64,000 nucleotides of DNA, taken from NCBI RefSeq assembly GCF_054482525.1, contig NZ_CM137006.1; one strand, 5' to 3'. This document shows positions 1 through 3,000 of the stretch, one piece after another; within the stretch, counting starts at the first letter, position 1; every line of letters starts with the position of its first letter. The position numbers are program-made.

Positions 1-3000
1 TTTGCCTTTGGGCTTGGGCTTGGCTTCTGGCTACAATCTGGTAAGAATGCCGATGAAATTTCGGCTATTAAATCAGTTCATGCTGAACAGGTGAGGGCGG
101 TAACACCTGACAGTACCAGCGATTTACCGAGACTTTCTATTGATTCTTTCTCTCAGCTTGGTTTTGATGTTTCTGTTACGTTTGTTGACGCTAAGGGTAT
201 GAAGTACCAGTATTTTGATTTAATTAAAGATGGTTATTCCGTTGATATTAAAGATGCCTGCCGAATTGTTATCAGAAAAGGCCATTATTTACAAAGCGTC
301 ACCTGTCAGGAGTAATATTACTATGCGTTTATTTTGCATTGCCATCTTATTCATTTATTCTTTTTGTGTTTCTGCTGAAACTGTTAATCTTAATAATTCA
401 TCCGTTCGTTCATTTGTCCAGTGGTATTCATCAAAAACTGGTAAGCCTGTTATTGTTAACCCCGATGTTAAAGGCTCCGTAACAGTATTTAATGCTGATG
501 TTAATCCCACAAATATTGATGACTTTTTCAAATCTGTTCTGAATGCTAATGGATTTGTCATGCTTTCTGGTAATCCTGCGGTAGTATCTTTGCCGTCAAA
601 ATTACCGTCACAGATGGCATCAGACCCTGATGATTCCGATAATCAGTCTTATGACTCTTTTCCGCCAGAGCCATCCTGTCAGCCAGCGCCTGTGGCGCTC
701 ACTGTCAGAAATTTTAAGCTGACAAAAGTACGAGCGTCTGATGTTCAGCAACTGGTTAAAATTTATCTGGATTCGAATGGCGGGGGTAATGTCGTGGATT
801 ATCCCGGCAATAACTCCCTGATTGTATCTGCGCCTGACGAGCTACTGCCTGTTCTGTCCAATTTCATTAACTCAGTTGATGTTGCCCGTGATCAGGTACT
901 CATTCAATCGCTCATGTTTGAAACCAGTTTGTCTGATGGTGTTGATTTGTCATTTGCAGCTGGCTCTGCATCCGGCCATAAGGTGGCGGGGGGTTTTAAT
1001 ACTTCTGCGCTGGGTAATGCTCTTTCTACGGTGGGCGGCTCTTTTGGTATTTTTGATGGTAACGTGTTGGCGCTGTCTCTGCGTGCTGTCCAGAGTAATT
1101 CACGCTCTAAGGTGATTTCAACACCGCGCATTCTTACTCAGTCCGGTCAGACTGGTTATATTTCCGTAGGTAAGAATGTGCCGTTTATCACAGGAAAGGT
1201 AACGGGTGAATCTGCTGGGGTAAATAATCCGTTTCAGACTATCGAACGTCATGATGTTGGCGTTTCTCTCAAGGTAACGCCTGTTGTCATGGGGAACGGG
1301 CAATTAGTTTTGACCATCGATACCCGCGCCGATTCAATCAGCAATGATGACCAAGCATCTGATATTATTACTAATCAGCGCCAGATTCAGACCACTGTTC
1401 AGATTAAGGATGGCCAGACTCTCTTACTTGGTGGGTTGATTGATTCATCATCCAGCAATGCTGACCGTTCTGTACCATTTATCAGCAAAATTCCGGTAAT
1501 TGGCTGGCTTTTCAGGAGTAAAGCTGACAGTAATGAGCAACGCATTATGTATGTCCTGCTGACTGCTCATATTATTCGTGCGCTTTGATGGGGCCGTGGC
1601 GGGTGCGTTAAGCCCCGGTATGGCCCCATCAAGAGCCAGATTTTACGTCTCACCACGGAGCCTCTATATGGCCTTAAAACTGACAGGATATGAACAGAAA
1701 AACATCTTCTAGGTGATTCAATTACTTAGAGGTTTTTATGTCTGTAAAAAGTAGGGGCGCGATCGACTTCCTGGTGGTCGCCTGAAGTCTTACCGTCGTG
1801 TTGGTTCACATTTTACCAGTTGTTCCAAGTGGTTTGATAAATCACCGTCCTGGTATCGCAATATGATGATGACCCGGCCAGAGCGCCGTGAAGTCAGAAA
1901 GCTTCTCAATCAGGTTGTACGTGGCCGTGACGCTGACGGCATCGCATTTCCGGTCAGCAACAAGCCATTTGCATGGCGGTGGTGAACATTTTTAGCCGCT
2001 AAAACTTCATGCTGACGGAATTATCGAAAACCCCGTACAGCAACAAAACTTGTTTTTGTTGCTGTACGGGGTTGGCCAAGCCGCAACAGTACTCTATTTT
2101 TCTTTGGAGTTAATTGCGGCGCGGCTAGGGATGTATCAGACTTTAATCTTAACTACTTTTTCAGTGCCGGTCATAAAACTAACCAGCTTCTTGCGGCCAT
2201 CGGGATACTCTTTAATGACACATCCTTCTGGCGTATTTTTTTCAGCGTAATAAATAGGGACGCCACTAAGAAGACAGGCTCGGGCTGCTTCACCGACATC
2301 ATGTTCTAGTTGCTGCTCGAAAACAGTCAAGAACTCTGCTTCCTCTGATGGTGTCATTTCAGCTAAATATGATAAGTCCATAAATGCTCATGCCTTCTGT
2401 AATTCATTGCTTAGTAACAATGATGAACAGGCCTGATTGGTGAGGTCAGGCTGTTCACTTACTGCTGACAGACATTTGATTCTGATTCGTTTGGAGAAAC
2501 GGATGATTTTGAATCATTGTCGATAGTAACCAGTTGACGGCCAGTGTCAACGATCCCCGCCAGATTCTGCCATCCTTACCATTGGTGCGCATAATGTATA
2601 TTATGTTAAATGGAATTTGAGTGATGCGAAGCGATTTTCCAGTCGTCGTTATTACTTCAGGGTTCCAGAACATAAAGCCTCTCCTCTTTCATGATTGGCC
2701 TGTGCATACCGGATATAGGCTGGCAGGTTTGCCGTTTGCCGCATCTTCCCTGCGTTGAAGAGTCAGGCTGGCAAACTGCGTGCAAATGAACACCCCCTCT
2801 TTCTATCAACACTTCAGACAGCTTGCGGGAATGAGTTCACTCCGGTATCAGAAATGGCTACGCCTCAATGAAGCCAGGCGACTGATGCTGAATGAACATT
2901 ACGATGTCACCACTGCAGCCTATGCTGTCGGTTACGAAAGCTTATCCCATTTCAGTCGGGAATATTCGCGGATATTTGGAGAGTCACCTAAGAGAGATAT

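Follow-up and report, generated by a model that had tools for sequence, protein, structure and literature searches.

An exact dif site with the tail of a CUS-1/YpfΦ-family filamentous prophage on its XerC-arm side in the terminus region of an Escherichia coli chromosome

The window, by which we mean the whole 64,000-nt stretch of DNA analysed here, carries at 2584-2611 a genuine chromosomal dif in a normal terminus neighbourhood, and activity of this site in chromosome dimer resolution is predicted from its sequence. To the left of it, window 1-2581 holds no core genome but the 3' end of an inovirus, that is, filamentous, prophage; window 2582-64000 is E. coli chromosome. The site, the synteny, the KOPS polarity, the identity of the prophage and the position of the junction were all observed directly. 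The model as a whole, in which a functional dif of the PCN033/19KM1776 lineage bears a prophage of the CUS-1/YpfΦ family on its XerC-arm side, is in our judgement highly probable. The parts of dif and the chromosomal features next to it are as follows.

2584-2611, + strand: dif, the XerCD dimer-resolution site and also the attR of the prophage on its left (exact, unique match; junction alignment)
2584-2594, + strand: XerC arm of dif, GGTGCGCATAA
2595-2600, + strand: central region of dif, TGTATA
2601-2611, + strand: XerD arm of dif, TTATGTTAAAT
2612-3034, + strand: chromosomal flank on the XerD-arm side, including the yneL remnant, 100% identical to PCN033 and 19KM1776
2780-3034, + strand: yneL-type remnant of an AraC-family regulator gene (HTH_18/AraC C-terminal fragment), adjoining dif
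3420-9831, + strand: intact F9-type (ydeQRST) chaperone-usher fimbrial operon (annotation of sister genomes; fimbrial domain)

The 28-mer GGTGCGCATAATGTATATTATGTTAAAT matches E. coli dif exactly (+ strand, 0 mismatches), as an earlier note on this DNA had claimed when it placed the window at the site of dimer resolution. With up to 3 mismatches allowed, it was matched once across the 64,000-nt window; it was single-copy also in 300 kb of strain 19KM1776, and a dif match occurred in none of 100 dinucleotide-preserving shuffles. The 11-bp XerC arm, the 6-bp central region and the 11-bp XerD arm are each identical to those of K-12 dif. A two-arm scan, in which a XerC-like and a XerD-like arm could be separated by spacers of 5-12 nt, gave no other credible dif-like site within the window, and no second or inverted dif-like site was found there. 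Positions 9462 and 29520 were considered as extra dif-like sites and rejected, as they have 5-6 mismatches and are found also at the homologous places of K-12. The dif of the window is a textbook site.

In K-12 MG1655 the identical 28-mer lies at 1590750-1590777 (- strand) between the yneL pseudogene (1590334-1590536) and hipA (1590854-1592176), 76 bp past the end of hipA, and both are the neighbours that the earlier note had named. The orientation of dif is alike in K-12 and in the window, with yneL on the XerD-arm side and the hipA side on the XerC-arm side, and the proposed adjacency of dif to yneL was found in the form of the remnant at 2780-3034. The note had further proposed that the gene order is the reverse complement of the K-12 terminus area, to be checked by alignment. 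This alignment agreed with the proposal and gave a terminus context: window 2825-48430 followed K-12 1555000-1590543, read as its reverse complement, with an identity of about 97.5%, and colinearity with K-12 runs from yneL to past maeA. The order to the right of dif is yneL remnant, F9-type fimbrial operon, ydeP, safA, ydeO, ydeN, ydeM, yddA, yddB and pqqL, followed by gadBC, digH, dosCP, the ddp operon, osmC and maeA, and the fimbrial operon provides the first chromosomal genes past dif.

Several differences from K-12 were seen on this side. The first 7 nt past the XerD arm are GGAATTT in the window and CATGTCT in K-12, and about 117 bp of the spacer between dif and yneL could not be aligned to K-12, the yneL of which aligns at window 2825-3289. 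K-12 lacks window 3289-6571 owing to a deletion that truncates its ydeT usher, and the window carries 6.8 kb extra relative to K-12 at 39558-46352. Two sequenced strains are far closer to the window than K-12. Only 6 of 61,417 positions differ between window 2582-64000 and strain 19KM1776 (NZ_CP151009), and PCN033 is 100% identical to the backbone of the window over the stretches compared.

On the other side of dif the arrangement departs from that of K-12, in which the end of hipA is 76 bp from dif; in the window a prophage is interposed. The earlier note had reported no hipA-like ORF ending within about 100 bp to the left of dif and had suggested foreign DNA on the hipA side, and both statements stood. 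A tblastn search for hipA and hipB over the window gave only hits with E>2, and none of the ORFs ending to the left of dif resembled hipA. The foreign DNA is the tail of a filamentous prophage with pI and pIV genes. It shares 99.5% identity with the corresponding end of the 8,455-bp prophage of the APEC O78:H4 strain E19057, and its phage origin alone explains any compositional or synteny oddities in the left 2.6 kb. The following features were recognized in it.

1-315, + strand: 3' end of a pI/Zot-like morphogenesis gene, which runs off the left edge of the window (match to phrog_1675, 'protein I of M13', at E 8e-18)
323-1588, + strand: pIV secretin gene, 421 aa with signal peptide (Pfam Secretin, E 7e-45; N0 and Secretin_N domains)
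1589-2583, no strand given: attR-proximal variable ('cargo') region, at the end of which the phage flank ...GCCATCCTTACCATT abuts dif
1737-1985, no strand given: decayed small ORF in the cargo region, with its start lost and a stop at codon 6, intact in E19057
2136-2381, - strand: 81-aa ORF in the cargo region (phrog_21003, E 4e-55)
2570-2594, + strand: putative phage-derived attP half, consisting of the right-end flank and the XerC arm, which would be followed by TGTACGACTCG-TTATGTTGAAA in the free phage genome

The segment 1-315 is colinear with the CDS annotated in E19057 as 'zonular occludens toxin domain', and the secretin at 323-1588 matched phrog_1012, 'protein IV of M13', at E 5e-152. 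The window thus holds the pI tail and pIV of an inovirus prophage, and the replication and coat module was seen only in the E19057 relative. Less can be said about the 81-aa ORF: Pfam gave nothing, its PHROGs family has no function assigned, and its homologues, which come from E. coli, Erwinia and Brenneria, are all named just 'hypothetical'. A match of this ORF to CPAP in the PDB was short and weak and was set aside as probably meaningless.

In E19057 the prophage lies between hipA and dif. The order there is hipB, hipA, two hypothetical genes, a transcriptional regulator, a pII-type replication protein, a DNA-binding (ssDNA-binding) protein and G7P, then the major coat protein, the attachment protein, a DUF5455 protein, Zot, the secretin, two hypothetical genes, dif, the yneL remnant and the F9 fimbriae. 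This element is a complete inovirus without an integrase. A prophage of like gene order, which we take to be CUS-1, occupies the same locus in strain UM146, and no integrase is annotated in either of these complete relatives, E19057 and UM146, the window element being seen only in part.

Like CUS-1 and YpfΦ, the window-type prophage as seen complete in E19057 has the inovirus gene order, no annotated integrase and a place between hipA and dif, and dif is intact where its 3' end meets the chromosome (PMC4266046). The core genes of CUS-1 of UM146 have only about 85-87% DNA identity with those of the window-type prophage, whereas its first 97 bp at the attL end, including an inverted dif-like site, are 100% identical to E19057, and the phage flank GCCATCCTTACCATT before dif is common to CUS-1 of UM146 and the window prophage. 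What is replaced relative to CUS-1 of UM146 is the attR-proximal cargo (~1592-2557) and the attL-proximal ORFs; of 1589-2583 it has no more than the 26 bases next to dif and 80 bp at 2022-2101. The window prophage is a mosaic relative of CUS-1/YpfΦ. Phages of the Ff-like and I2-2 (Lineavirus) kind have homologous pI and pIV, but they are episomal and non-integrating and have no dif-like attP. Gene I of the E19057 prophage has 75.8% DNA identity with that of I2-2 over 480 bp, and this was the sole match when the full E19057 prophage was compared with the phage collection by megablast, with none to CUS-1 or YpfΦ.

The distribution of the prophage tail was assessed in 5,426 complete E. coli genomes. 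It was matched in 165, mostly through pI and pIV at about 87% identity (the UM146 type). Coverage of at least 80% of the tail was reached in just 5 of the 5,426, of which 3 were at least 98% identical. PCN033 and 19KM1776, the two closest backbones, are without the prophage and have instead a remnant of an ISNCY transposase and a truncated hipA to the left of the same dif. The pairing of this backbone with this prophage occurred in none of the genomes of the collection, which suggests that the source lineage acquired the insertion recently.

The DNA to the left of dif could be explained also as a dead remnant, in which a deletion left behind only pI, pIV and cargo and no whole prophage exists. 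Indeed, the last 2.58 kb of the element are all that the window shows, the small ORF, intact in E19057, is here without its start and interrupted by a stop, a hint that the element is perhaps not fully intact, and the closest backbones have decayed on the same side of dif, where hipA is truncated by the ISNCY remnant. However, pIV is full length and the tail of pI is in frame, and the 99.5% identity to the complete prophage of E19057 continues up to the window edge. Moreover, all three genomes that hold the variant at an identity of at least 98% have both the Zot and the secretin genes, and in E19057, the only carrier of the variant examined in full, the prophage is complete. A dead remnant is for these reasons considered improbable, if still the most serious of the competing explanations.

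The prophage reading was followed to the junction by an alignment of the window, E19057, UM146, 19KM1776 and K-12. The phage flank ...GCCATCCTTACCATT stands to the left of dif, and to the right follows a lineage-specific chromosomal flank, GGAATTTGAG..., identical to that of the prophage-free 19KM1776. Since phage sequence is on one side and chromosomal sequence on the other, the switch from phage to chromosome lies within dif, and the prophage is integrated at dif with an intact dif, its attR, at its 3' end.

For the opposite end we turned to the relatives, and attL, the hairpin attP, the XerC mechanism and the copy number proposed here for the window element are inferred from them and from the literature. 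In E19057 and UM146 attL reads GGTGCGCATAA-TGTACGACTCG-TTATGTTGAAA, that is, the XerC arm of dif, 11 nt of spacer and a XerD arm that is degenerate. About 65 bp inward from attL, the prophages of both strains have an inverted dif-like site, GGTTCGCACAA-TGACG-TTATGCTAAAG. An attP was rebuilt by joining the right end of the window to the left end of the prophage of another strain, E19057. The (+) strand of this composite, taken as single-stranded DNA, was predicted to form a forked hairpin with the XerC and XerD arms paired and the centre bulged, at -31.3 kcal/mol (z=-8 vs shuffles), and its central region is 11-nt/5-nt. Independent support for this attP came from strain EC5502, where it stands between integrated copies; EC5502 has a tandem array of CUS-1-type prophage adjoining dif with inter-copy junctions every ~8.32 kb. 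These junctions are attP, CCTTACCATTGGTGCGCATAATGTACGACTCGTTATGTT, i.e. CCTTACCATT-GGTGCGCATAA-TGTACGACTCG-TTATGTT, and the true dif is present only at the chromosomal end of the array.

A phage without an integrase could then enter the chromosome as follows. The two inverted dif-like sequences of its single-stranded DNA genome would fold into a hairpin that mimics dif, host XerC would swap one strand pair of dif with the folded single-stranded attP, and the insertion would be finished by replication. The hipA-side (5') end would be left with a crippled, non-functional hybrid site with an 11-nt spacer, and at the 3' end a perfect dif would be rebuilt, with a XerC arm contributed by the phage and the rest, central region and XerD arm, by the chromosome. 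With dif restored in this way, FtsK/KOPS-guided dimer resolution would go on and further copies could insert at the same place. The scheme is modelled on published systems: integration that depends on XerC, is independent of FtsK and exchanges a single strand pair is known from the literature on CTXΦ and YpfΦ (PMC4246890, PMC4266046). YpfΦ and CUS-1 have been described as inserting at dif, which is restored intact at their 3' end, with inverted XerC/XerD sites like those of CTXΦ, and as forming tandem repeats (PMC4266046), and both are listed among the CTXΦ-type members (PMC4246890) of the IMEXs, the integrative mobile elements exploiting Xer.

Integration as double-stranded DNA, by the reversible route of the VGJΦ or TLCΦ type and not through a CTXΦ-type hairpin, would also give a junction such as the one observed. 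The window alone does not discriminate here, as all three types use Xer and leave a dif-like site at each end. The relatives do: their inverted sites pair as a bulged hairpin with an 11-nt/5-nt centre, the hallmark of the CTXΦ type, Xer would be expected to act poorly on a lone double-stranded site whose spacer is 11 nt long, and CUS-1Φ and YpfΦ have been placed in the CTXΦ type (PMC4246890, PMC4266046). We regard a double-stranded route as very unlikely. The likeness to CTXΦ proposed for the single-stranded route extends to the folded attP of two inverted dif-like sites, the exchange of one strand pair by XerC, the restoration of dif at one end and the tandem arrays (PMC4246890). CTXΦ differs in that it belongs to Vibrio cholerae, another host with another dif. 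It carries ctxAB at the position of the 81-aa cargo, whereas the window prophage is devoid of toxin genes and encodes its own pIV secretin. The secretin of CTXΦ is EpsD of the host.

The remaining evidence concerns the place of this dif in the terminus, where polarized motifs can be compared on its two sides. One feature of the window is needed here.

9232-46754, - strand: nine KOPS motifs, GGGNAGGG, 9/9 on one strand

All KOPS of the window (0:9, + to - strand) direct FtsK leftwards to dif (two-sided binomial p=0.004), and Chi occurs once on the + strand and 8 times on the - strand. None of the KOPS is in the prophage part of the window, which was checked for an orientation that would hinder FtsK, and the full E19057 prophage has one KOPS per orientation, which is unremarkable. 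As the polarity to the left of dif was testable only in the sister genome, 300 kb centred on dif were assembled from 19KM1776, 150 kb on each side. KOPS were distributed 6:1 (+ to -) to the left and 0:16 to the right (Fisher p=7e-5), which puts dif at their convergence point, and Chi 18:9 to the left and 8:18 to the right (p=0.013). The behaviour of KOPS close to dif matches the description in PMC5357621.

GC skew was less telling. The earlier note had named a switch of skew at dif as a second check, and a change of sign was seen over the ~300 kb of 19KM1776 (left 150 kb, +0.046; right 150 kb, -0.027) and not within the window, where skew over the 61 kb right of dif was -0.0003. At the scale of the window GC skew is uninformative, because to the right it is flat and the left side of dif amounts to no more than 2.6 kb, all of phage origin. 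The left value in 19KM1776 falls to +0.027 once a lambdoid prophage is removed, and the cumulative skew has its maximum as a broad plateau from -10 to +48 kb, with no sharp peak at dif. The cumulative maximum in this strain sits 48 kb from dif.

In the same 300 kb TerC was found 13.2 kb and TerB, adjoining tus, 112 kb to the left of dif, TerA being beyond the 150 kb examined, and both are on the strand opposite dif, as in MG1655 (PMC8347550). The Ter core consensus GNRNGTTGTAACKA gave 0 matches within the window at <=1 mismatch, as expected, because TerC is on the other side of dif. A dif marks where dimers are resolved, within the innermost Ter pair (TerA-TerC), and not necessarily the point of fork fusion (PMC8347550), and the dif described here probably lies in the innermost termination area. 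The statement that the window spans the terminus has accordingly to be narrowed: dif is crossed, but only 2.58 kb lie to the left of it, all of it prophage and with no Ter site, so that the window touches the terminus, barely crossing dif, rather than straddling it.

That the 28-mer is a copy borne by a phage or plasmid, or the product of an assembly chimera, and that the window is not at the terminus, can for practical purposes be dismissed: its XerC arm is formally phage-derived and the exact combination of prophage and backbone occurs in no genome of the collection, but the 61 kb of flanking DNA are terminus-region chromosome, KOPS and Chi polarity converge on the 28-mer, dif, its position and its right flank are unchanged in the prophage-free sisters, and the join of prophage and dif is identical in three other complete genomes. 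A plasmid site of the cer/psi type, or a chimera, was ruled out by the 61-kb synteny together with the identical junctions in complete genomes.

As a chromosomal dif, the site serves as a map reference, which fixes the window at the dimer-resolution site and gives the replichore polarity of all sequence beyond 2611. The prophage falls into the CUS-1/YpfΦ group of Xer-exploiting filamentous phages, which is already published and for which modest virulence effects have been reported, and is a rare member of it with a different end cargo. What is mildly new is the rarity of the variant (3-5 of 5,426 complete E. coli genomes) and the finding that the nearest sequenced relatives of the lineage are without the prophage. 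It could be speculated, although we think it rather unlikely, that the source strain gained this rare CUS-1-family variant very recently and that the 81-aa cargo is a factor in fitness or virulence. If the element is still active, CTXΦ-type single-strand integration at dif could be studied in a natural pair of E. coli strains, the source strain with the prophage and 19KM1776 without it, which differ by only 6 SNPs in 61 kb.

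Both prophage-free genomes with the backbones closest to the window carry a shortened hipA. In 19KM1776 (sister genome; L004 16576-17537) and PCN033 (L005 7823-8784) the gene is reduced to its N-terminal domain, the cause being a frameshifted ISNCY transposase remnant with its end 70 bp from dif. Since hipA is broken in both relatives, it was possibly disrupted in the window's lineage too, where the break may have preceded the arrival of the phage.

The other flank of dif was found to vary between strains. The seven nucleotides directly after the XerD arm are lineage-dependent, being GGAATTT in the window, PCN033 and 19KM1776 and CATGTCT in K-12 and the avian pathogenic strain APEC E19057. 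Window 2708-2824 (approximately 117 bp) does not align to K-12 or E19057, yet is of similar length. Window 2612-2824 is a small hypervariable patch adjoining dif. Three small ORFs lie at dif or in the prophage to its left:

L001 15739-15987, counterpart window 1737-1985: 82-aa ORF annotated in the complete prophage of E19057
Window 2136-2381, minus strand: 81-aa prophage ORF adjoining attR, phrog_21003
Window 2455-2673, minus strand: 72-aa ORF crossing dif

Family searches with the 72-aa ORF returned no match, and this reading frame through dif is almost certainly spurious. In the window counterpart of the 82-aa ORF the start codon is lost and codon 6 is a stop codon; this ORF is either decaying in the window or no real gene. 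Homologues of the 81-aa ORF, 74-94% identical and all named hypothetical, were found in E. coli, Erwinia amylovora and Brenneria; its position is the one occupied by toxin genes in CTXΦ.

A very long tandem array adjoins dif in E. coli EC5502 (L012; NZ_CP092647.1 4928000-4975000, running on across the record start). The repeated unit is a CUS-1-type filamentous prophage with 16 matching places in the record, at approximately 8.32 kb per copy. Many genes of the array carry a frameshift annotation; errors in the long-read assembly or mis-assembled reads of the replicative form are possible causes.

Two regions farther from dif have a pronounced GC skew. In 19KM1776 a lambdoid (Qin-like) prophage is located on the other replichore, at roughly -81 to -37 kb relative to dif (L007 19227 to L008 13015). 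Its local GC skew is strong (+0.10 to +0.13) and inflates the left-hand GC skew of this genome; it also carries the single wrongly oriented KOPS of that side. The second region, window ~57000-62000, is AT-rich (GC 0.34-0.40) with a strongly negative GC skew, and is bounded by an ompC/ompN-type porin gene and narU. The same stretch of the sister genome contains genes for leucine-rich-repeat proteins, of which one gene is truncated, and the region is probably old horizontally acquired DNA.

Comparison with K-12 also showed two differences in gene content. The window has an intact F9-type (ydeQRST) fimbrial operon, with the major subunit, the chaperone and an 883-aa usher, whereas K-12 has a 3.3-kb deletion (corresponding to window 3289-6571) that removed the major subunit and chaperone and truncated the usher (ydeT). 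Between ddpF and osmC, the window carries a 6.8-kb insertion relative to K-12 (39558-46352). According to the sister genome, its genes encode a LysR regulator, CoA-transferase subunits A and B, acetyl-CoA acetyltransferase, 3-hydroxyacyl-CoA dehydrogenase, a GntP permease and 3-hydroxybutyrate dehydrogenase, and the insertion looks like a cluster for the utilisation of ketone bodies or short-chain acids.
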